From: an uncultured Clostridia bacterium
GTDB taxonomy: Bacteria > Bacillota > Clostridia > TANB77 > CAG-508
Assembly: GCA_934130935.1 (NCBI GenBank)
Contig: CAKOYQ010000001.1
Span: forward strand, 95,979 to 159,978
Reading direction: 5' to 3'
Length of the DNA: 64,000 nt
Shown: piece after piece, positions 2,267 through 12,828 of the stretch
How the letters are laid out: the number at the start of each line of letters is the position of its first letter
Position numbering within the stretch: the first letter of the stretch is position 1
The notes under the pieces: generated by a model
The model's input: only the letters and a program-made list of their open reading frames with translations
The model's database searches: none
What the model was told of the DNA's origin: nothing
Program-made: the position numbers and the translations under genes

Positions 2267-4489
2267 CTAGGCTCCTCTTTCTTTTAATTTTTTATTTTTA
2301 ACTATGTCAACACCATATGTTATTGCTAATGTACAAATAGTTATAGACATCAAAATCATAATATAACTACCCTTGAAATTTGTAGCAGTAGGAACTAAAA
2401 TTTCTCTCAATAATTTAATTGAATATGTCATTGGCAAATAAGGTGTTACTGATTGAAATCCTTTATCTATTGTCTCTATTGGGAATGTACCCCCAGATGC
2501 TGCTAGTTGTAAAACAAGAATTATTAGTGCTAAAAATTTTCCAATATCTCCAAAGTTTCTAATTAGGAATTGAATGATACTTGTAAATGTAATACCTATT
2601 AAGATACTAGCAAAATAATATAATGCACTATTTTGAACTTCATATCCTAAACCTAATTTTAACAATGCTGCAACTATTATTCCTTGAATTGCGCCTATTG
2701 CTATATAAATTATATTCTGTAAAAACTTCTTTTCACTATTATGGTCTAAAATTCCAAATCTATGCTTTTGATCATAATACAATACCACATAACACATTAA
2801 TGCTCCTACCCACAAACCAATACATAAGAATAGTGGAGTAAATGCTATACCATAAGAATTAACTTTTCCATATTCTTCTGTCTTAAATTCTACTGGGTCT
2901 TCTGCAAACTCTTCAATACCTGAAAGGCTTTTTAAATCATTATTAGTAGTTTCAATATTTTTATTTATTTCATCATTAAATTCTTGTAAACCATCTGTTA
3001 ATTGTGTGCTTCCAGAATATAATGAATCTGTTCCAGCAGATAATTTATTTAAAGCTGTTTTTACTTGTATAGAACTACTGTCTAATTTCTCTAAACCACT
3101 TTTTAAACTATTACTTCCACCTAACAATTTAGTAGTTCCATTTTTTAAACTTCTTACACCAGACTGCAATGATTTAGTACCTATTTGAACTTGTGCTAAT
3201 GCAGATTGTAAATTTGTTATTCCTGATGTAATCTGTCCTAATGATTCAGACTTTTTAGCTAATAGTTGAGTACCAGTATATAACTCATTTGAACCTGCTT
3301 TTACAGCTCCTTCTAAACCTATTAATTGGTTAGCACCAGCCATTATAGTTGGCTCCATCTTAGTCAATGCAGTTTCAGATGTTTTTATACCTGTTCCATT
3401 TTTTGTTAATGATTCTATCTCTTTACTTTCAATAATATTTTTAGCTTTTATCGCTAATTTTTGAACATTAGCATCTTCGCTATTCTGTAATTCAGATAGT
3501 TCTGTTAATAACTCGGAAATTTGAGTATTTGATTCATTAACTGAATCAATATATTTATTTACATTTCCTAATAAATAATTTGTTCCATTTATATATCCTA
3601 TTGTTCCATTTGCTAGAGATGTTGCTCCATCTGCATATGCAGATAATTTAATATTTAAGTTCCCAGCCCCATTATTTATATCTGTAATACCATTTGATAA
3701 TGCTTGAACACCATCAGCTCCTTTTGCAGCTAAATCGTTAACTCCAGAATTTATTTGAGAAACCGCATTATTTAATGAATCAGAACCTGTGTTTAATGTA
3801 TCAACACCAGAGCTTACTTGATTAAGACCACTTTCTAAAGATTTACTTCCTTCATATGCTGAATTTACACCAGTATTAAATTCTGTATAACTATTGTTTA
3901 AAGTTGTAGTTCCATCATTAACTTCCTTAATTCCATTAGTCAAAGTCTCTGAACCATTTAATAATTGACCTGATGCATCAGATATCTTTTCTAAACTGTC
4001 AGGCACACTTTTTAAATTATCAGATAAATTTCCTACTATTGCACCACTAACCTTTGCTTGTAAATTAATCTCCATAGTCTTTACCGCACTGTTAATTATT
4101 TGAGAAGATAAATAGTTTGATGCTTGATTTGGACTATATGTTATAGTTGATATTTGTTTATCTGTTGTTGAAGCACTATTTAAACTCTTAGTAAAATTAC
4201 TAGGAATAGTTATAGTAGCATAATACTTACCATTTTGCATACCTTCATTTGCCTCATCTAATGTTACAGGACATATATCAAAAGTTCCATCATCTTGCAA
4301 AGATTTTAAAAATTCATTTCCCTGATTTTCATTGTTTTCGCCATCATCTAAATTAACTACAGCAATTTTTAATCCTTTCAAATCACCATATGGGTCCCAA
4401 TAAGATTTTAGATAGAAAAAACTGTATATTATTGGTATTAATAAAACAACCGCAAAAATTATAACTTCTAAAATTTTTTCTTTTTTCAT
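2267..4489 (-). CDS. YhgE/Pip domain membrane protein (phage infection protein-like)
   Basis: 740 aa with an N-terminal TM, a long extracellular region of repeated LxxGxxxLxxG-type Ser/Asn-rich segments, and a C-terminal multi-TM ABC-2-like bundle. It has the typical TetR partner immediately upstream. Confidence 0.65.
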   Translation of the reverse strand: MKKEKILEVIIFAVVLLIPIIYSFFYLKSYWDPYGDLKGLKIAVVNLDDGENNENQGNEFLKSLQDDGTFDICPVTLDEANEGMQNGKYYATITIPSNFTKSLNSASTTDKQISTITYSPNQASNYLSSQIINSAVKTMEINLQAKVSGAIVGNLSDNLKSVPDSLEKISDASGQLLNGSETLTNGIKEVNDGTTTLNNSYTEFNTGVNSAYEGSKSLESGLNQVSSGVDTLNTGSDSLNNAVSQINSGVNDLAAKGADGVQALSNGITDINNGAGNLNIKLSAYADGATSLANGTIGYINGTNYLLGNVNKYIDSVNESNTQISELLTELSELQNSEDANVQKLAIKAKNIIESKEIESLTKNGTGIKTSETALTKMEPTIMAGANQLIGLEGAVKAGSNELYTGTQLLAKKSESLGQITSGITNLQSALAQVQIGTKSLQSGVRSLKNGTTKLLGGSNSLKSGLEKLDSSSIQVKTALNKLSAGTDSLYSGSTQLTDGLQEFNDEINKNIETTNNDLKSLSGIEEFAEDPVEFKTEEYGKVNSYGIAFTPLFLCIGLWVGALMCYVVLYYDQKHRFGILDHNSEKKFLQNIIYIAIGAIQGIIVAALLKLGLGYEVQNSALYYFASILIGITFTSIIQFLIRNFGDIGKFLALIILVLQLAASGGTFPIETIDKGFQSVTPYLPMTYSIKLLREILVPTATNFKGSYIMILMSITICTLAITYGVDIVKNKKLKERGA

Positions 4490-4492
4490 AAA

Positions 4493-5065
4493 TTAATCAA
4501 CATCCTTTCTTAAACCATTTTTTAAAATCTCAGAAATACTACTTGCTATCATTTGTTCATCTAATTCTTTTTCGTGTTCATTCCATTCAAACATTAAAGC
4601 AATATACATTTTGTATATTAAAAATGAAGTAATATCTGCATTTTTATAATCAATGTAACCATTTTCTTTAGCTTTTTCTAGTTTTGTCTTTATATAATTT
4701 TGTATCTGTGTATCAATTAATTCTAAACTATTTATAATAACAGGATTTTTAAGCCATTCTGCTTCTTTTGTTATAATATTTAAAAAATCTTTATCTTTTC
4801 TATATTTTAAAAGACTATAAATAGATTGATTTACAGTTTCAAAAAAATCCAAATTTTTATTATCTATTTCTTCTACAATGTTTTTCATATTAACAATTTC
4901 TTCTTGTATAAAATATTTTAATAAGTCTTCTTTACTAGAAAAATAAGAATAAATAGTTTTTTTAGTTACATTAGCTTCTCTTGCTATTTCATCCATAGAA
5001 ACTTTTTTAAATCCATATTTATGAAATAACAACCTTGCAGATTCAATAACATTTTCTTTCTTCAT
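4493..5065 (-). CDS. TetR/AcrR family transcriptional regulator
   Basis: 190 aa with an N-terminal HTH (LFHKYGFKKVSMDEIAREANVTKKTIYSYF). It overlaps the downstream YhgE gene by a few nt, so the two form an operon. Confidence 0.7.
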   Translation of the reverse strand: MKKENVIESARLLFHKYGFKKVSMDEIAREANVTKKTIYSYFSSKEDLLKYFIQEEIVNMKNIVEEIDNKNLDFFETVNQSIYSLLKYRKDKDFLNIITKEAEWLKNPVIINSLELIDTQIQNYIKTKLEKAKENGYIDYKNADITSFLIYKMYIALMFEWNEHEKELDEQMIASSISEILKNGLRKDVD

Positions 5066-5216: not shown

Positions 5217-8015
5217 TTATTCACCTGCAACTGTATTTACTTTAAATAATTTTAATAATTCAACAATGGCTATTGGTGCTAACACTAATGCCATAACTTC
5301 TATCATGTTTCCAAGTGGTAGAATTGGTATACTAAACACGTGTCTTAAAGCAGGGACAGTCAATATTATAACCATTAAAAATGCTGAAAAAAGAACAGCC
5401 CATATTAATATCGGATTGCCTAATATTCCTGTTTTAAATATTGAATTTTTATTATCACGTATATTAAATACATGAACTAATTCAGAAAATGCTAATACGA
5501 TAAATACCATAGTTTGGCCAATCTCAATTTTAATTTCTTCTTTAGATATATATTCTCCGCCATTTGCTAATACTTCGTCCAAATTATCTATTTCTTCAGC
5601 TGATATTACCTGGTTCTCGTATGATATCATAGTTGGTAATTTATCATCAGGTGTTGCTAATCCTATTAGAAATGCTATAAGTGTAAGTAATCCAATCATT
5701 ACACCTTGATATATAATTCTAAAAGTTCTACCTTTTGTAAATATTCCCTCATCCTTTTTTATTGGTTTTCTATTCATTACATCTTTATTCGCTGGATCAA
5801 ATGCTAATGCCAATGCAGGAAATGTATCTGTTACAAGGTTTATCCATAATATATGAATTGGAAGTAAAACTTGTATCATTGTTACATCAGATATGCCAAA
5901 CCAACTAGCTATTGCTGGAGCAAATAATGTAGCCAATAGTAATACTATAACCTCTCCAACATTACATGAAATTAAAAATTGTATTACTTTTAGAATATTA
6001 TCATATATACGTCTTCCCTCTTCAACTGCTGATACTATTGTTGCAAAATTATCATCTGTTAAAATAACATCTGCAGCTTCTTTTGCAACTTCTGTTCCAA
6101 CTTTTCCCATTGCACATCCAATATCAGATGTTTTCAATGCTGGGCTATCATTTACACCATCACCTGTCATAGCAACTACTTCACCATTTGCTTGCCAAGC
6201 TTTTACTATACGGACTTTATGTTCAGGTGATACTCTTGCATACACTGAATATTTTCTTATATCTTTTGTTAATTGTTCATCAGATATCTTATCTAGCTCC
6301 AGTCCTGTTAGAGCCTCATTCTCATTTTCTAATATTCCTAATTTTTTTGCAATCGCAACTGCTGTAATTTTATGATCTCCTGTAATCATTACAGTTTTGA
6401 TTCCTGCATGTTTACATTTTTCAACAGCTTTTTTAGCCTCTTCTCTTGGCGGATCTATCATCCCAACCATTCCTATAAATGTAAGACCGCTTTCTATTGT
6501 TTTCATTTCTTCTTTTGACGGCTTATGGTCAATTTCTTTATATGCAAATGCCAATACTCTTAGTGCATCTTTTGCCATATCTTCATTGTTTTCTCTTATC
6601 CAATTAGCATATTCATCTATGTTTGTTTTTACTTCACCTTTGAATAAATATGAATTACATATTTTTAATAATTCATCTACTCCACCTTTTGTATAAATTG
6701 TATATTTTCCGTTGTTTTCATTTACAGTTGTCATTAATTTTCTTTCAGAATCAAATGGTATTTCTTCTACTCTTTTGTTTTCTCTATAAATTGATTGTTC
6801 ATAATCTTGTTTTAATGCCATATCTATTAATGCTGTTTCTGTAGGATCTCCTGTAATTTCGCAATTTTCAAGTATCCTAGAATCATTGCATAACATACAG
6901 TTGTATACTAATTTATTAAAATCATCTGTTGCATCAACTTTTTCTAAATCTACTGTTGTATCATTGCAAAATATTTTTTCAACAGTCATTTTGTTTTGTG
7001 TCAATGTTCCTGTTTTATCTGAACATATTACTGTACTGCTACCTAAAGTTTCTACAGCTGGTAATTTTTTTACAATAGCATGCTTCTTTACCATTTTTTG
7101 AACACCTATCGCTAATACTATTGTTGAAACAGCAACTAATCCTTCTGGTATTACAGCTACTGCAAGTGATACAGCTGTCATAAACATTCCAACTACACTC
7201 TTTCCTTGTAATAGACCTATAACAAATATTACTGCACATATTACTAAAGCTGCAATTCCAAGTGTTTTTCCTAAACTGTTTAATCTTGTTTGAAGTGGTG
7301 TTTCTTGTTTTTCTGTATTATTTAACATCCCTGCAATTTTACCAACTTCTGTATTCATACCAGTCTCAACTACAACTGCTTTTCCTCTACCATATGTAAT
7401 TAAACTTGATGAAAACAACATATTTACTCTATCGCCAATTCCAATTTCAGTTCCCTCGATAGCCATTATCTCTTTTTCTACTGGTACAGATTCACCTGTT
7501 AGTGAACTTTCTTGAGCTTTTAAATTAACAGCCTCTACTATTCTTAAATCAGCTGAGACATAATCTCCTGTTTCTATTATTACTATATCTCCAGGTACCA
7601 ACTCTCTCGCAGGAATAATTTGTTCCTTTCCATCTCTTATAACTTTTGCAGCATGTTCACTTAGTTTCTTTAATGCCTCTAATGATTTTTCAGCTTTGCT
7701 TTCTTGTGCTACTCCAATTACTGCATTTAGTAATACTACTATTAATATTATTATTGTATCAGTAAATCCCTCTCCTTGTGCAACTCCTACTACTCCTGAA
7801 ACTATTGCAGCTATTATTAATACTATTATTGAAAAATCTTTAAATTGAGCTATAAATTTTTTAATTAATGATTCTTTTTTCTTTTCTTTTAATTCATTAA
7901 GTCCATATTTTTCTTTATTCTCTGTCAACTTAATATTGCTTAAACCTTTTTCCAAATTTGTTCCTAGCTCTTTTTCAACATCTTTTACTTCTTTGTTAAA
8001 CCACTGCTTTTCCAT
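5217..8015 (-). CDS. calcium-translocating P-type ATPase (P2A/PMCA-like)
   Basis: 932 aa with the CSDKTGTLT phosphorylation motif, the TGDGVNDSPALK hinge, and an arrangement of about 10 TM helices. An N-terminal Cation_ATPase_N-like segment is present. Confidence 0.85.
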   Translation of the reverse strand: MEKQWFNKEVKDVEKELGTNLEKGLSNIKLTENKEKYGLNELKEKKKESLIKKFIAQFKDFSIIVLIIAAIVSGVVGVAQGEGFTDTIIILIVVLLNAVIGVAQESKAEKSLEALKKLSEHAAKVIRDGKEQIIPARELVPGDIVIIETGDYVSADLRIVEAVNLKAQESSLTGESVPVEKEIMAIEGTEIGIGDRVNMLFSSSLITYGRGKAVVVETGMNTEVGKIAGMLNNTEKQETPLQTRLNSLGKTLGIAALVICAVIFVIGLLQGKSVVGMFMTAVSLAVAVIPEGLVAVSTIVLAIGVQKMVKKHAIVKKLPAVETLGSSTVICSDKTGTLTQNKMTVEKIFCNDTTVDLEKVDATDDFNKLVYNCMLCNDSRILENCEITGDPTETALIDMALKQDYEQSIYRENKRVEEIPFDSERKLMTTVNENNGKYTIYTKGGVDELLKICNSYLFKGEVKTNIDEYANWIRENNEDMAKDALRVLAFAYKEIDHKPSKEEMKTIESGLTFIGMVGMIDPPREEAKKAVEKCKHAGIKTVMITGDHKITAVAIAKKLGILENENEALTGLELDKISDEQLTKDIRKYSVYARVSPEHKVRIVKAWQANGEVVAMTGDGVNDSPALKTSDIGCAMGKVGTEVAKEAADVILTDDNFATIVSAVEEGRRIYDNILKVIQFLISCNVGEVIVLLLATLFAPAIASWFGISDVTMIQVLLPIHILWINLVTDTFPALALAFDPANKDVMNRKPIKKDEGIFTKGRTFRIIYQGVMIGLLTLIAFLIGLATPDDKLPTMISYENQVISAEEIDNLDEVLANGGEYISKEEIKIEIGQTMVFIVLAFSELVHVFNIRDNKNSIFKTGILGNPILIWAVLFSAFLMVIILTVPALRHVFSIPILPLGNMIEVMALVLAPIAIVELLKLFKVNTVAGE

Positions 8016-8415
8016 TTACATCTTTCCTTTCTTCATTATTAGTCTAAATCAATTCTTTTTATTATATTATAACCATTTATGAAAATAATAAGACTCTTAA
8101 AGAAAAAATACATAATTTTTTCTTTAAAAGTCTCGTTTACTTTCTACTTGATGTCTGTTATTCTTTCGAACAAGCTTGCTAACCAGATTTACTTTCTATA
8201 AAAATAGAAAAATCGCGATTGTTGATTAGCAATTTAAAACTACTCCCTTTTAAGGTTATATATATAAAGTTCTTTATAGTTATTCTTAGTTATAAAAAAC
8301 TAAAGTACTAAAAAGTATTAATTAATTATATGACGATTATACATATATTATTCTTGCTTGTCAAGTTTTATTTGTAAATATTTTTTAAATATTAAGAATA
8401 ATATTTAAAAAATAA

Positions 8416-8444
8416 TTGACTTAAAAGAAAAATTGTGATATAAA
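8416..8444 (+). promoter_or_regulatory. sigma-A type promoter for tRNA-Glu (TTGACT-17-TATAAA with upstream TGTG extended -10)
   Basis: ttgacttaaaagaaaaattgtgatataaat lies about 18 nt upstream of the mature tRNA 5' end. Confidence 0.45.
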
Positions 8445-8461
8445 TATTAAGTATTAAAAAT

Positions 8462-8536
8462 GGCCCGTTGGTCAAGCGGTTAAGACGCCACCCTCTCAAG
8501 GTGGAATCATGAGTTCGATTCTCGTACGGGTCACCA
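8462..8536 (+). tRNA. tRNA-Glu (anticodon CUC as read from the loop ctCTCaa; encoded CCA)
   Basis: The acceptor stem ggcccgt/acgggtc and the D-arm gtcaagcggttaagac match the bacterial tRNA-Glu identity. The anticodon stem is ccacc/ggtgg, the loop is c-t-CTC-a-a, and the T-loop is ttcgatt. Confidence 0.85.
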
Positions 8537-8564
8537 TAATAATTTTATACTAACACATATAAAG

Positions 8565-8601
8565 AAAAAACATTACTAAATTTTAATTAGTAATGTTTTT
8601 T
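8565..8601. terminator. bidirectional rho-independent terminator after tRNA-Glu
   Basis: aaaaaacattactaa-attttaat-tagtaatgtttttt is a perfect 13-bp stem flanked by A-run and T-run. Confidence 0.6.
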
Positions 8602-8640
8602 CTTATATACGAAGAAACAACTAAAAGTAGCCACAATGAG

Positions 8641-9399
8641 CTACTTTATAAAGTCATCTAACTGTCTATATCTAATTATGAAAAATACTGCTCCAATCAA
8701 AAGTATTATTGATATTGTAATTATAGTACTTTTTATTCCAGCTTTAGGCAAATTTTGACCTGCTAAAGACTTATCTATTATCGAACTCTCTTGGTCAACT
8801 TCATCTATTTCATCATTAGAATTTTCATCTTCCGAACTATCTTCATCATCACTAGGCTCTTCTTCATTCTCATCATCTGGGCTTTCTTCTGTGTCATCTT
8901 GTTCTTCATCTCCGTTGTCTAAGTTGTCTTGACTGTCATCATTCAAATCGTCTTCATCTGAATTATCTGCATCTGCACTAAGTGTATCTCCAACTTTATA
9001 ATCTACCCATTCCTTTACAGCTGAAATATTTTCTTTTGTTTCATCTATATTTTCATCTGATAAATCTCTCGTTTGTGCCTTAAGTTCTGTGCTTATTGAA
9101 GTTTTTATTAGTGGGTTTATTCCTACTATATTATTAAATTTGCCAATATCTGAACTTAATTTTTGTTTCAATGAATTATTGACTTTTGTTGCATTATATA
9201 AATCTTCATGTATCATATCCACTACTTTTTTTAATTGTTTTAAATCCCCTAAGTCATCTTCATGTTTTTCTAATAAATTCTTTAAGTTCTTGCTTTTTGT
9301 ACTCGCATAAACAGTATTAGTATTTGCACACACAAGTACTAATAAACACATTAATACGATAGATAGCAACTTTTTATTTGCATTTATAAATTTTTTCAT
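8641..9399 (-). CDS. secreted acidic surface protein with C-terminal LPKAG-TM-RYR sorting-signal-like anchor
   Basis: 252 aa. It has a signal peptide (MKKFINANKKLLSIVLMCLLVLVCANTNTVYAST) and a ~70-aa low-complexity tract of about 60% D/E/S/N. The C-terminus reads LPKAG + hydrophobic helix + RYRQLDD, the arrangement of an LPxTG-type sortase substrate. Confidence 0.5.
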   Translation of the reverse strand: MKKFINANKKLLSIVLMCLLVLVCANTNTVYASTKSKNLKNLLEKHEDDLGDLKQLKKVVDMIHEDLYNATKVNNSLKQKLSSDIGKFNNIVGINPLIKTSISTELKAQTRDLSDENIDETKENISAVKEWVDYKVGDTLSADADNSDEDDLNDDSQDNLDNGDEEQDDTEESPDDENEEEPSDDEDSSEDENSNDEIDEVDQESSIIDKSLAGQNLPKAGIKSTIITISIILLIGAVFFIIRYRQLDDFIK

Positions 9400-9487
9400 T
9401 TTTTCATCTTCCTCATATTCTTTTGTTTAATTTTTTCTCTATACTGAAAGTATATCACATTATGTCTATTAAAGTCAATACCATTAA

Positions 9488-11809
9488 TTACTTATTCTTC
9501 TTTTTAAAATTTACCACAATAGCATTTTCATTATCAAATTCAAAATTCGCATCTGTATTGTCAATTTGAACAGGATTAAATTCATCTCTTTCGTCTACAA
9601 AATTGATATGTTTTGGATCAAATTTATTTCTTGTTGAGTCTTCTGAATCTTCATCATTTGCAACTCCTGGAGTAAATCTTGAAAAATCATATTTTTTAAC
9701 AGGCTGTTCTTCTTTATATTTAGAAGAAATAAAATTCATTTTTCCTTCACCTATAATAAAATCTCCAGTTTCTGCTTTTAGTTTAACAGCAGCTGACTTA
9801 AATTTTAAAGTTGCTAATTTGTTAGTCGCAAAATAACTTTCCCAATCATATTTTACACTTCCCCATTTTGCGTCATATTCTAATTTATTCATATCCATAC
9901 TATTTGAATAGGTCCATGTTCTTCTCTTTGTAAATTCTCGTGACCACCATTCCAATTCTTCTGGTGTAGATCCTCCCAAGAATATTTTACTAGCACAATT
10001 TGAAAGAATTGTATCTTTATATTTTAGCCTTGGAGAATTACCTTCCAACTGCGCTAAATTCTGTGCTGTAATTGTTGTTCCAACTTTATATTTACGGTAC
10101 AATGTAAACATTGCTTCTGTGTCTTTACATATAAAATCTGGAAATTCGTCTATATACAAGAAGTGCGGAATTCTACTATTCTCATTTCCTGCTCTTCTTA
10201 AAATAGCATTTTGCATTGACAACATAAAAAATAATCCAAATGCTCTATGGCTAGTTCTTCCTAAATCACCTCTACGTGTACAAACTAATGTAACCTCTCC
10301 ATTTTCCAATACTTTATCAAAATCTATATTATTATGCCTATTACATAAAATTGTTTTTACACCTGGTAGTCTTAACAAATTGTCTAATTGTGCTGTAGCT
10401 ATATAAATATATTTTTCTGTTTCCTCTCTTCCTGGACTTCCTGCATAAAAATTCTTTTTAAAATAATTTATTTGTATGCTATATTTTTTAGCAAGCTCAT
10501 CATTTGCCTTCATTATTTCACACATTTTTTCTACTAGGTCAAAATTAGTAAGCATTTTCAATAAATCTTCCAAATTAGGTATATTTCCGTTGTTCATTCT
10601 AGGATACATTTCTTTTAACATAATAGAAATATTTTCTAATGCTTGAATTATAAAATCTTCTCTATATGCTTCCTCTCTTTCCAAATGTGTACTTGCATAC
10701 ATTCCTTTTAATACTGATGAAATTGTTATAGCGATTTTTGATGCATCATCATATATAAATGGGTTTAATCCTATTGAATTCATATTTGATGGATCAATTA
10801 AATTGTATTTAATATGATAATTTTTACAAACATTCATTATTCTTGTTGCAGATTCTATATCTGGCGATATTGATGTTATTCCAAGGTTTCTATATACTAT
10901 ATCACTTCCAAGTGATGATAAAATCATTTTATTCATATATGCCTTATAAACCGCTTCTCTGCCAGTTGCTGGTGTTATCATATTTAAGTTAAAGTTATCA
11001 TTTAAATAATCATTATCATATGGTTTGTTTAATATTGCTATTCCTGTTTTTAATGCTGTATATCCCATTTCTTTTGCATTTGAAATATAAAATGCCTTTT
11101 TTTCTATATCTTTAGCCATCATTGGTTCTAATATTAATGATGTTTTTCCTGTTCCAGAACCTCCACATACTAATAGTGATTGATATCTACTCTTTTCTGC
11201 AAATACCATTTTCTTTCCACTTTCATAATTATTACACATATGTATGTCACATGTAAATGGTCCATGTCCTGCTGCTTTATTTGATAAGTTTATTCCTTTA
11301 TAGTCCCAAATAGATCTTGTTTGATCTTTACTGTCCATGATTCCTAATTTTATCCATTTAAACACACCATAAAATGTAGTTAATGGTAAATATAAAGCTA
11401 ATGCTGTTAATGCTGGTCTTATCAATTCTGAAAAATTTGTTACCAATTCTGTATATCCAGGTAATGATATCAAAAATAACCAAACTATTCTATTTATTCC
11501 TTGTGTAAACATTGAAACTGCAACTATATATAATGTTACAACATATGTAAGGAATAATGTAACCTTCATATTTTTTGATGTTGCAAATTCTGATGGTGGT
11601 GAAAATAAATATGCAAATACTGGACATGCCATTGCAAGTGTATATTGTATTGGTCCCCAATATGATACAGACACTCCTGTAAATATTAAAAATAACATCT
11701 CTACAACTCTATCTACTACTATATACAGTGATATTAATGTTAATATATATGTTGCAAATGTATTTCTACTTGCATTAATTTTCTTTAAAAATTTATCTAT
11801 TATTTTCAT
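9488..11809 (-). CDS. membrane-anchored TraG/TraD/VirD4-family (type IV coupling protein-like) P-loop ATPase
   Basis: 773 aa with about 5 N-terminal TM helices. Walker A is LVCGGSGTGKTS and Walker B is HFLYIDEFPDF. The downstream TITAQNLAQL...ILSNCASKIFLGG matches the T4CP QxxxQL/ilxN motifs. It is not FtsK/SpoIIIE, which would show a different Walker A and a gamma domain. Confidence 0.55.
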   Translation of the reverse strand: MKIIDKFLKKINASRNTFATYILTLISLYIVVDRVVEMLFLIFTGVSVSYWGPIQYTLAMACPVFAYLFSPPSEFATSKNMKVTLFLTYVVTLYIVAVSMFTQGINRIVWLFLISLPGYTELVTNFSELIRPALTALALYLPLTTFYGVFKWIKLGIMDSKDQTRSIWDYKGINLSNKAAGHGPFTCDIHMCNNYESGKKMVFAEKSRYQSLLVCGGSGTGKTSLILEPMMAKDIEKKAFYISNAKEMGYTALKTGIAILNKPYDNDYLNDNFNLNMITPATGREAVYKAYMNKMILSSLGSDIVYRNLGITSISPDIESATRIMNVCKNYHIKYNLIDPSNMNSIGLNPFIYDDASKIAITISSVLKGMYASTHLEREEAYREDFIIQALENISIMLKEMYPRMNNGNIPNLEDLLKMLTNFDLVEKMCEIMKANDELAKKYSIQINYFKKNFYAGSPGREETEKYIYIATAQLDNLLRLPGVKTILCNRHNNIDFDKVLENGEVTLVCTRRGDLGRTSHRAFGLFFMLSMQNAILRRAGNENSRIPHFLYIDEFPDFICKDTEAMFTLYRKYKVGTTITAQNLAQLEGNSPRLKYKDTILSNCASKIFLGGSTPEELEWWSREFTKRRTWTYSNSMDMNKLEYDAKWGSVKYDWESYFATNKLATLKFKSAAVKLKAETGDFIIGEGKMNFISSKYKEEQPVKKYDFSRFTPGVANDEDSEDSTRNKFDPKHINFVDERDEFNPVQIDNTDANFEFDNENAIVVNFKKKNK

Positions 11810-11973
11810 AATATTTTTTGTTCCTTTCTAGGCACAATAAGTTTGAGAATATTCCCAAGCCCTCCTTTATTTAATTTTTCATATATATATTATCTAACAA
11901 AATTGCTAAAAATACAAGTTTTTTCATCAAATTTTATAAGTTTTTCTATTATTTGCTTATCCTAAAATTCTTT

Positions 11974-12828
11974 TTATACTATTAATTGTAAAATTATACC
12001 TGACAATACTCCAATACTATATAAAAGTCCTATAATCTTAAAATTTTCTTTTATATCTTTGTTTGTCTTAAGTAATACAAGTAATCCCACACCTGCATTT
12101 ACAGCAACACCTGAAACTAAAACAGGCATAGATATTACATTTTCAACAAATAATTCTGTTAAAATAACAGATGATGCACAATTCGGAATTAGTCCTATTA
12201 GTCCTGCTATTATTGGACCTAAAATTACATTTTTGCTAATAAAATCTGCAATAGCGTCTTCTCCTATTAATAGGATTACTCCATTAATCACAAATGTTAT
12301 TATAAATATAAAAATTATTATATTAAGTGTGTGTTTAACTGCAGAAAAAATGATTCCTTCATCACAATGGCAATGTTCATGCTCACATAATTCTTCAATA
12401 TTATTTTTTTCTACTTTATCACTCTTTCTTATTTTCATAACTATATCAATTCCAAAACCTGCTATTATTCCTATTATTAGTTTTATTCCTAGTATTGTTA
12501 TTATAGTAGATACAGGAACCGATTCAGTTAACAAAATTGGTAACATTTCATCTGAAGTTGTCAAATATACTGCCATTAATGTTCCAAGTGTAATCACTCT
12601 TCCAGCATATAGATTGGTTGCAGATACAGAAAAACCACATTGTGGAAATATTCCTAGCATTGCGCCTAATAATGGTCCAAATCTTCCAGATTTTTCTATA
12701 GTAGCTTTCACTTTATCACTTGTTTTATGCTCTATGTATTCCATTATTAGATATGTTATAAATAAAAATGGTATTATTTTAATTGTATCTAATGAAGTTT
12801 CCTTCAAGGCTTCTAAGATTCCTTGCAT
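11974..12828 (-). CDS. predicted two-repeat permease (DUF318/ArsP-like) with Cys/His-rich loop
   Basis: 284 aa with 8-10 TM helices. Two mirrored motifs (IFPQCGFSVSAT and LIPNCASSVILT) suggest an inverted-repeat transporter. The central loop is LCEHEHCHCDEG. Confidence 0.4.
   Translation of the reverse strand: MQGILEALKETSLDTIKIIPFLFITYLIMEYIEHKTSDKVKATIEKSGRFGPLLGAMLGIFPQCGFSVSATNLYAGRVITLGTLMAVYLTTSDEMLPILLTESVPVSTIITILGIKLIIGIIAGFGIDIVMKIRKSDKVEKNNIEELCEHEHCHCDEGIIFSAVKHTLNIIIFIFIITFVINGVILLIGEDAIADFISKNVILGPIIAGLIGLIPNCASSVILTELFVENVISMPVLVSGVAVNAGVGLLVLLKTNKDIKENFKIIGLLYSIGVLSGIILQLIV

Follow-up and report, generated by a model that had tools for sequence, protein, structure and literature searches.

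A 64,000-nt stretch of DNA from an uncultured Clostridia bacterium (GenBank assembly GCA_934130935.1, contig CAKOYQ010000001.1, positions 95,979 to 159,978; hereafter the window) encodes, close to a tRNA-Glu gene, a 773-aa membrane ATPase, intact and belonging to the VirD4/TrwB/TraG coupling-protein superfamily. Its gene is a core, vertically inherited chromosomal gene in a clade of low-GC (~28%) uncultured gut Clostridia, under constraint comparable to that of Obg or GlmS. The superfamily itself is known; what is new is a clade of type IV coupling proteins (T4CPs) that is inherited in this way, and no description of a core-genome T4CP in Clostridia was found in the literature. An original prediction, made from the letters of the window, had treated the ATPase and a neighbouring acidic surface protein as accessory genes, either the decayed stump of an integrative conjugative element (ICE) or a domesticated coupling-ATPase/surface-protein pair. 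The domesticated coupling ATPase survives from this proposal. At roughly even odds (about 0.5), we favour a history in which a plasmid module was captured and its ATPase, still T4CP-like, exports or transfers host DNA by way of a type IV secretion system (T4SS) or the channel of a co-resident element, the acidic protein being separate.

Coupling-protein fold and architecture

The likeness to TraG, TraD and VirD4 that had been proposed from motifs is borne out both by Pfam profiles and by structure. TraG-D_C matches the ATPase at 42.5 bits (cut-off 22) and T4SS-DNA_transf at 27.4 bits (cut-off 20.1), while TrwB_AAD_bind stays under its cut-off (15.2 bits against 20.5). The nearest NCBIfam model, the VirD4-like NF045973 (conju_CD1115), gives 53.3 bits against a cut-off of 250, which does not make the protein a member; the ATPase thus stands outside every named subfamily. 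An AlphaFold2 model built from 41 sequences has a mean predicted local distance difference test score (pLDDT) of 82.7 and a predicted TM-score (pTM) of 0.71. Foldseek searches with this model placed TrwB (E 7.6e-12, target TM-score 0.70) and Helicobacter pylori Cag-beta at the top, above HerA, DotL and VirB4. Between 365 and 400 residues align structurally to TrwB and Cag-beta, and the fold of the nucleotide-binding domain is nearest to those of solved T4CPs. A profile of 30 homologues searched against PDB sequences returned DotL as its single match (E 0.008), and by sequence the family is remote from all solved T4CPs.

The motifs quoted in the original prediction, GGSGTGKT, YIDEF and AQNLAQL in the ATPase and LPKAG followed by a hydrophobic stretch and RYR in the acidic protein, are all present at the places claimed, with AQNLAQL forming part of AQNLAQLEG at ATPase residues 582-590. 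Walker A and B are both conserved. Across 30 sequences G216 of Walker A is invariant and G221, K222 and T223 are near-invariant; in 41 sequences G216, K222 and T223 are still near-invariant, and for these three residues, together with D554 of Walker B, near-invariance extends to ~20% identity. The description of the protein as polytopic holds in the form of four long hydrophobic helices in the model (residues 15-44, 53-69, 79-114 and 127-159). In this membrane domain, which spans residues 15-159, N16, E37, G45, P63, K82, N106, W110, P117 and P142 are near-invariant down to 26% identity. The model also has a small beta domain, and its acidic tail is disordered (residues 715-766, pLDDT <50).

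The C-terminus of the protein carries a short peptide motif whose consensus, ..P(V/I)Q.D.TD....FDN(E/D).AI, is kept across 81 orthologues (45-100% identity). Chromosomal members at a greater distance retain its core, (D/G)P(I/V)(Q/K), which the plasmid relatives lack. The coordinates of these and the other features of the locus are collected in Table 1.

A core gene of gut Clostridia

Loci of relatives, given L numbers below, were collected by scanning one genome per species. At least 101 stretches encode a relative of the ATPase, and 80 of them were kept. They come from metagenome-assembled genomes (MAGs) of uncultured gut Clostridia, with record names that include Clostridium sp. CAG:343, 28_12 and 28_17, and comprise one complete 1.55-Mb chromosome. 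All 80 encode a full-length ATPase, at 45-83% identity. The open reading frames (ORFs) of all loci were clustered and their conserved neighbours annotated, which gave three main contexts. In group A, the order TrpRS-Obg-(NUDIX)-ArsP-ATPase is found in 26 loci, 18 of which run on to a Ca-ATPase gene like the window. Group B (38 loci, 52-62% identity) has GlmS, BofA and DUF2508 on one side of the ATPase and ArsP (convergent), DUF2651, TruA and CdaA on the other. The ATPase of group C (6 loci, 45-53% identity) is flanked by HU and a SpoVB/MurJ-like gene and, on the far side, by Replic_Relax, an S1-domain protein and RluB.

Members at 30-41% identity again lie amid housekeeping genes (PyrG, Pth, Fmt/HU, L21/L27, tRNA synthetases). 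In one such context the ATPase gene stands between PyrG and a run of Replic_Relax, RluB and LeuRS, and in another it follows IleRS, RNase G and Pth. It is also found after HU and Fmt, either with Replic_Relax and RluB on its other side or without them, and after Obg, TrpRS, L27, L21 and Pth.

Pairwise identities of the ATPase correlate with those of its neighbours (r = 0.94 for GlmS, 0.86 for ArsP, 0.74 for DnaJ, 0.72 for CdaA and 0.58 for Obg). The ratio of nonsynonymous to synonymous substitution rates (dN/dS) was estimated in 12 close species pairs, with neighbour genes of the same pairs as yardstick. It is 0.041-0.092 for the ATPase in 11 of the 12, beside GlmS at 0.058-0.135, Obg at 0.07 and TrpRS at 0.038. 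The GC content of the gene, 28.2%, is close to the 28.5% of the window. For the ATPase, the label "not housekeeping" is thus overturned, as it behaves as a core gene in synteny, identity correlations and dN/dS. Of the two signs that the original prediction had named as telling against itself, a position conserved without variability is indeed found, while the best profile matches remain T4CP families.

The gene has its own conserved sigma-A-type promoter, from which it is transcribed. In 30 aligned upstream regions, some of them from loci with another upstream gene, the block CTTGTAATTTT...TTT.TA.GATAATATAT shows at least 80% conservation. A 21-codon upstream ORF (window 11794-11858, minus strand; TTG start, LGIFSNLLCLERNKKYYENNR), preceded by the strong ribosome-binding site AAAGGAGG, overlaps the ATPase start codon out of frame and may serve translational coupling or regulation of the ATPase. 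The inserted leader segment (window 11813-11875) is clearly common to L065 only; L006 and L023 have different insertions there. L065, the nearest species in the genome set (83% identity), has an upstream context unlike that of the window: neither ArsP nor Obg lies within 6 kb, and a distant paralogue of P-type ATPases occurs. Since L065 keeps the promoter and the downstream tRNA-Glu, the ATPase gene moves with its own promoter.

The ArsP_2 gene adjoins the ATPase gene in 65 of 81 loci, co-directionally in one lineage and convergently in the other, and is not adjacent in deeper branches. A functional link between the two was considered. Because the orientations differ and the adjacency is lost in deeper branches, the arrangement is read as inherited synteny, though some link may exist. 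Two diverged TrpRS-Obg-ArsP-ATPase loci, 81% and 76% identical to that of the window (L001 and L016), are both assigned to MAG CAKPLT01, whose bin is probably a mix of two species.

Mobile relatives and the origin of the gene

An exhaustive HMMER search for relatives of the ATPase among 1.84 billion cluster representatives gave 114 matches at E ≤1e-30 and 3342 at E ≤0.001. Among relatives carried by plasmids, the best are 28-29% identical over 82-93% of the length, membrane domain included. They are encoded by Clostridium beijerinckii p1 (169 kb; WP_264647377.1) and by C. botulinum plasmids of the pFWSKR40E1 type (134-144 kb; WP_172688299.1). The C. botulinum protein heads a co-directional cluster of genes for a DUF87 ATPase, a C39 peptidase, an ATPase of the type II secretion/type IV pilus/T4SS family and a cell-wall hydrolase. 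Two other relatives are 28% identical: P0170 belongs to an operon, Replic_Relax first and then the T4CP, that adjoins a TubZ-like gene, and P0143 has integrase, ParM-like and DnaA_N genes beside it. In a rough neighbour-joining tree of the family, midpoint-rooted and without support values, every chromosomal member belongs to one clade, and two mobile groups fall outside it. A phage origin was rejected, as 50,697 phage records hold one marginal match to the ATPase.

MOBC relaxases correspond to the Pfam family Replic_Relax (PMC5357655, Table 1), which has a PD-(D/E)XK fold (PMC3424549) and is homologous to CloDF13 MobC (PMC3357382). A gene of this family lies beside the chromosomal ATPase gene in eight more distant loci (L069, L076-L080, L081 and L085). 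It is a 311-aa Replic_Relax-type gene, convergent with the ATPase gene, which lies ~70-100 nt past the ATPase stop in L069 and L076-L080 and occupies positions 10251-11174 of L081 and 4491-5420 of L085. The family has 5359 matches at E ≤1e-5 and, in 7 sequences, 56 invariant positions, including an ED..H motif. Searching proteins with the Replic_Relax profile brought back nothing beyond close kin of its query group (67-100% identity), so that a diverged copy elsewhere in the lineage of the window may have gone unseen. A profile of the chromosomal 311-aa proteins also matches a gene on the C. beijerinckii plasmid and a gene directly downstream of the T4CP in L093.

The simplest history, we infer, is a single ancient capture. 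A plasmid mobilisation module made up of a coupling ATPase and a MOBC-type protein, possibly with an S1 protein, would have been taken up once, anciently, and kept for a host function. This module would later have been dispersed, leaving only the ATPase at this locus in the lineage of the window. On the C. beijerinckii plasmid (L090 3800-5603), the Replic_Relax-type gene has as its neighbour an S1-domain gene, a homologue of the S1 gene of group C. Given that the two genes adjoin each other on this plasmid as well as in group C, the S1 protein may be part of the captured module and not a housekeeping YabR-like protein.

Possible functions of the ATPase

If the captured ATPase still works as a coupling protein, it would form a membrane-anchored hexameric ring and would receive a protein-bound DNA substrate through its C-terminal motif. 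ATP use would move the substrate to or through the membrane, by way of a channel that T4SS genes elsewhere in the genome or co-resident conjugative elements would supply, and the outcome would be export or transfer of host DNA. F TraD, which recruits TraM through its C-terminus, provides a model for such motif-based substrate docking, and we infer that the conserved motif of the ATPase is likewise a partner-docking site. The motif is kept even where no Replic_Relax gene is adjacent, so a partner probably exists in these genomes. In the lineage of the window, both partner and channel are hypothetical.

Several observations weigh against the coupling-protein reading. Neither tblastn nor profile searches gave a Replic_Relax match in the window or the closest loci. 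In the 64-kb window, and up to 8 kb away from the gene in the 66 closest loci, there was neither a Replic_Relax gene nor a T4SS gene. No oriT was identified either, though no search was aimed at one and the family has no oriT model. The tree that underlies the proposed origin is rough, as described above. The ATPase has four membrane helices, whereas canonical VirD4 and TrwB have two. Lasting purifying selection in small genomes is, moreover, unexpected for mere DNA mobilisation and favours a more direct cellular role.

One such role would be that of a self-contained DNA pump, in which the four-helix hexamer forms its own conduit and serves chromosome segregation, sporulation or DNA donation without any T4SS. 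FtsK/SpoIIIE, Streptomyces TraB and Thermus TdtA are single-protein DNA translocases with which such a pump can be compared. A core gene under housekeeping-level constraint in small genomes, transcribed from its own vegetative-type promoter, would suit this function, as would four membrane helices like those of FtsK/SpoIIIE with the conserved polar residues E37, K82 and N106. No T4SS gene was seen in ~95 loci totalling 1.49 Mb, and sporulation genes (BofA, SpoVB-like) are neighbours in two contexts. FtsK, too, gave no match in this collected sequence, a negative that carries no weight. However, a plasmid relative that heads a T4SS-like cluster has the same membrane domain (the C. beijerinckii alignment starts from residue 2), and the domain is therefore not an adaptation to autonomy. 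No T4CP is known to function without a channel, and the sporulation neighbours vary by context, in the manner of ordinary synteny. A sporulation-specific gene was rejected as a candidate, since BofA, DUF2508 and SpoVB-like neighbours occur in some contexts only and the conserved promoter is sigma-A-like. A self-contained pump is, on balance, unlikely. In a related and also unlikely scenario, the T4SS-free machine would have a MOBC-type nuclease as its partner and would nick chromosomal DNA and pump it out of or between cells, or carry out DNA transport in the cell cycle or sporulation.

Alternatively, a complete T4SS, conjugative or effector-secreting, could be encoded elsewhere on the chromosome, with the ATPase as its canonical coupling protein and only the gene linkage lost. 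Other bacteria do have T4SSs that are inherited vertically while their genes are scattered, one example being the rvh system of Rickettsiales. The sequence and fold of a T4CP, the conserved docking-type motif at the C-terminus and the T4SS-like clusters around the plasmid relatives would all agree with this arrangement. Yet T4SS genes were seen neither in the 64-kb window nor close to the gene in any of the chromosomal loci, and genomes of ~1.5 Mb leave little space for a full T4SS. We consider this solution unlikely.

A part in anti-phage defence, alongside P-loop translocases of the HerA, DptH or MADS type, is suggested by a weak PADLOC match to mad8 (35 bits, E 2e-9) and by the presence of DptH, TdpA and HerA-Sir2 structures among the matches. 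T4CP profiles and structures score higher, however, and no other defence gene lies nearby in any context. Defence genes are also typically variable, whereas this gene is fixed and core. We give a defence function very little credence.

The tRNA-Glu slot and the acidic protein

In the window, the two minus-strand genes for the 252-aa acidic protein and the 773-aa ATPase converge on the 3' end of tRNA-Glu, and beyond ArsP_2 the same strand carries Obg, TrpRS, DnaJ and DnaK. The placement "immediately 3' of tRNA-Glu" is correct for this species but does not extend to 19 related species, where the tRNA gene shares the strand of the ATPase gene and is found downstream of it, 57 to 4707 nt past the ATPase stop. 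The segment that bears the tRNA gene is inverted in the window relative to nine relatives, to which it is 82.5-89% identical by blastn; the leader of the Ca-ATPase gene (7951-8265) stays collinear, and ~140 nt (8266-8406) have no counterpart in the relatives. As the tRNA piece is inverted here, the layout is a local, species-specific rearrangement. The slot between the ATPase gene and the tRNA gene varies in content from species to species (0.06-4.7 kb).

A decayed integrative conjugative or mobilisable element at tRNA-Glu would explain why the genes adjoin a tRNA gene and why the slot beside it is variable, with an IS21-type insertion in L086 and differing content in relatives. For the ATPase this origin is refuted. 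The gene is intact, full length and under purifying selection in at least 80 species, with a host-like composition, and its position is fixed relative to Obg and ArsP (TrpRS-Obg-ArsP in 26 loci); in relatives it lies upstream of the tRNA gene and not 3' of it. The direct repeat of the tRNA 3' end that an element might have left has no copy in the window, where neither a second copy of the 26-mer at that end (up to 3 mismatches) nor any shared 12-mer was found. No integrase was found among the neighbours of the ATPase gene. As the original prediction had reported, no relaxase, VirB4 or integrase was seen in the window; its ten largest ORFs are housekeeping throughout (DnaK, NrdD, RNase Y, ArgRS, PBP1, FtsH, UPF0182 and others), the Replic_Relax profile found nothing and the small ORFs were profiled only in part. 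There is next to no chance that the locus is an ICE stump.

The acidic protein begins with MKKFINANKK, a hydrophobic core and VYA, which looks by eye like a signal peptide, and continues with a helical N-terminal domain that belongs to no family. The LPXTG-like C-terminus and the extreme D/E/S/N tract attributed to it are confirmed by motif layout and composition. Residues 140-207 are 53% D/E and 78% D/E/S/N, the whole protein has an isoelectric point of 4.2, and LPKAG (residues 217-221) is followed by a hydrophobic stretch of 21 residues and by RYRQLDDFIK, the layout of a sorting signal. The TIGR01167 profile scores 16.0, a borderline value against its cut-off of 15.9, and EF0750_LPXTG scores 26.8, under its cut-off of 47. 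No sortase gene is present in the window; a related locus, L051, has a sortase-like gene. Homologues form just 12 clusters, all at least 74% identical, in 5.8 billion proteins. A single 40% homologue in L012 has LPNAG and a different low-complexity linker. The exact sequence occurs in 204 blocks of the assembly collection, from which 22 contigs were read; at each of the four places shown, the ATPase gene immediately precedes it. By its motifs and distribution, the protein is restricted to its lineage and is probably a sortase-anchored surface protein.

A functional pair of ATPase and acidic protein, acting as a dedicated export or DNA-uptake accessory, could be read from the position of the two genes, which lie 88 nt apart on one strand without a detected terminator in the interval, and from L012, whose homologue is likewise downstream of the ATPase gene. 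In L012, however, a 500-aa gene intervenes. Of the closest group's 29 loci only 2 carry the acidic-protein gene, and the 52 remaining loci all lack it; its 12 homologous clusters stand against thousands for the ATPase, and it has its own promoter-like site and terminators. The pairing is hardly tenable. We conclude that the acidic protein is no partner of the ATPase and that its gene is a separate insertion in a rearrangement-prone slot that reaches from the ATPase gene to tRNA-Glu. Its GC content (29.1%) is host-like despite the variable presence. Transcription arriving from either direction could be halted by a perfect 18-bp palindrome (8562-8604) that separates the gene from the 3' end of the tRNA.

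Other features of the region were noted in passing. In L086, a strain of the species of the window, an IS21-type (IstB) fragment lies together with NUDIX and HTH_32 genes at 7283-9349, between the acidic-protein and Ca-ATPase genes; many split genes on this contig suggest long-read frameshifts. A leader of ~320 nt precedes the Ca-ATPase gene (window 8016-8364, minus strand). It starts from a promoter of perfect sequence, TTGACA-17-TATAAT (8364-8336), and contains a terminator-like hairpin of 20 bp (8134-8090). This leader stays conserved in relatives (67-86% identity), had no Rfam match even at E up to 1 and may be an attenuator or an undescribed riboswitch. Elsewhere in the window, positions 2267-5065 hold a TetR-family regulator gene and then a gene for a 740-aa ABC-2/DUF3533 membrane protein. 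An identical gene in L087 was pre-annotated with a weak EsaA_helical match, which makes the protein YhgE/Pip-like.

Table 1. Features of the tRNA-Glu/ATPase locus, in window coordinates.
Feature	Position	Strand	Basis or remark
P-type Ca-ATPase gene	5217-8015		Other side of locus
tRNA-Glu with ~55 nt upstream, including promoter region, 135 nt	8407-8541	+	Inverted relative to nine relatives
tRNA-Glu(CTC)	8462-8536	+	ARAGORN; Rfam 61 bits
Two terminator-like hairpins past acidic-protein gene	8562..8647	-	Palindrome at 8562-8604 among them
Acidic-protein gene, 252 aa	8641-9399	-	ORF
Promoter-like site of acidic-protein gene (TTGACT, 18 nt, TATACT, with TG)	9449..9478	-	Consensus scan alone
T4CP-like membrane ATPase gene, 773 aa	9488-11809	-	ORF, Pfam, AlphaFold2 model, structural matches, 80 orthologous loci, dN/dS
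C-terminal peptide motif FNPVQIDNTDANFEFDNENAIVV, residues 744-766, beyond disordered acidic linker	9512..9580	-	81 orthologues
Walker B region HFLYIDEF, residues 549-556	10142..10165	-	P548, F550, Y552, D554 near-invariant
Helical insertion, residues 356-500, where the T4CP all-alpha domain would sit	10310..10744	-	All-helical in AlphaFold2 model
Walker A GGSGTGKT, residues 216-223	11141..11164	-	Alignments
N-terminal membrane domain, residues 15-159	11333..11767	-	AlphaFold2 model, hydropathy windows
Sigma-A-type promoter of ATPase gene (TTGTAT, 17 nt, GATAAT)	11889..11917	-	Conservation
ArsP_2 / "arsenic efflux" membrane-protein gene	11974-12828	-	NF037962, 310 bits

Implications

Coupling proteins are treated as markers of mobile elements, and tools that count ICEs, integrative mobilisable elements and plasmids score a T4CP match as mobilome. 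T4CP matches from this clade of gut Clostridia, which is abundant and uncultured and lives in human and animal hosts, would be miscounted in this way. The locus suggests exaptation of part of a plasmid mobilisation module, a coupling ATPase and a MOBC-type nuclease, for a host function. If host DNA is indeed exported or exchanged, this bears on recombination in reduced-genome gut lineages. If the function is something else, it would be the first role of the T4CP fold outside T4SSs, and a T4SS-free machine in particular would be a new, T4SS-independent use of that fold. The C-terminal motif and the Replic_Relax neighbour offer concrete, testable handles on the function of the ATPase.

Comparison with known systems

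TrwB of R388, VirD4 and Cag-beta have in common with the ATPase an N-terminal membrane anchor, a helical insertion in the Walker A/B domain and matches to Pfam TraG-D_C and T4SS-DNA_transf, although the ATPase is only 13-16% identical to them over the aligned parts. It also differs from canonical T4CPs in being chromosomal and vertically inherited, with no relaxase or T4SS genes nearby in the lineage of the window. FtsK/SpoIIIE, TraB and TdtA are similar in their membrane anchor of about four helices and in a chromosomal, host-level function. Compared with FtsK, the ATPase is clearly nearer to T4CPs in sequence and fold, and a septal or sporulation role is without support here. The acidic protein shares with LPXTG sortase-anchored proteins (TIGR01167; EF2685/EF0750 family) a signal-like N-terminus, an LP motif, a hydrophobic stretch and a basic tail, but it has A in place of T (LPKAG) and an N-terminal domain without a family.

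The closest mobile relatives of the ATPase are the T4CPs of Clostridium plasmids, which belong to the same family in the tree. They are larger, at 920-1000 aa, are encoded beside recombinases and a T4SS-like cluster and do not carry the C-terminal motif of the chromosomal clade. The MobB/MobC-type module of CloDF13 (a T4CP plus a MOBC relaxase) and pAD1 TraX are comparable in that a coupling ATPase is paired with a Replic_Relax/MOBC protein on the plasmid-like contig L093, in group C, in L081 and in L085. Unlike the CloDF13 module, the window is without a MOBC gene, and the chromosomal pairs are convergent instead of operonic and are fixed among housekeeping genes.

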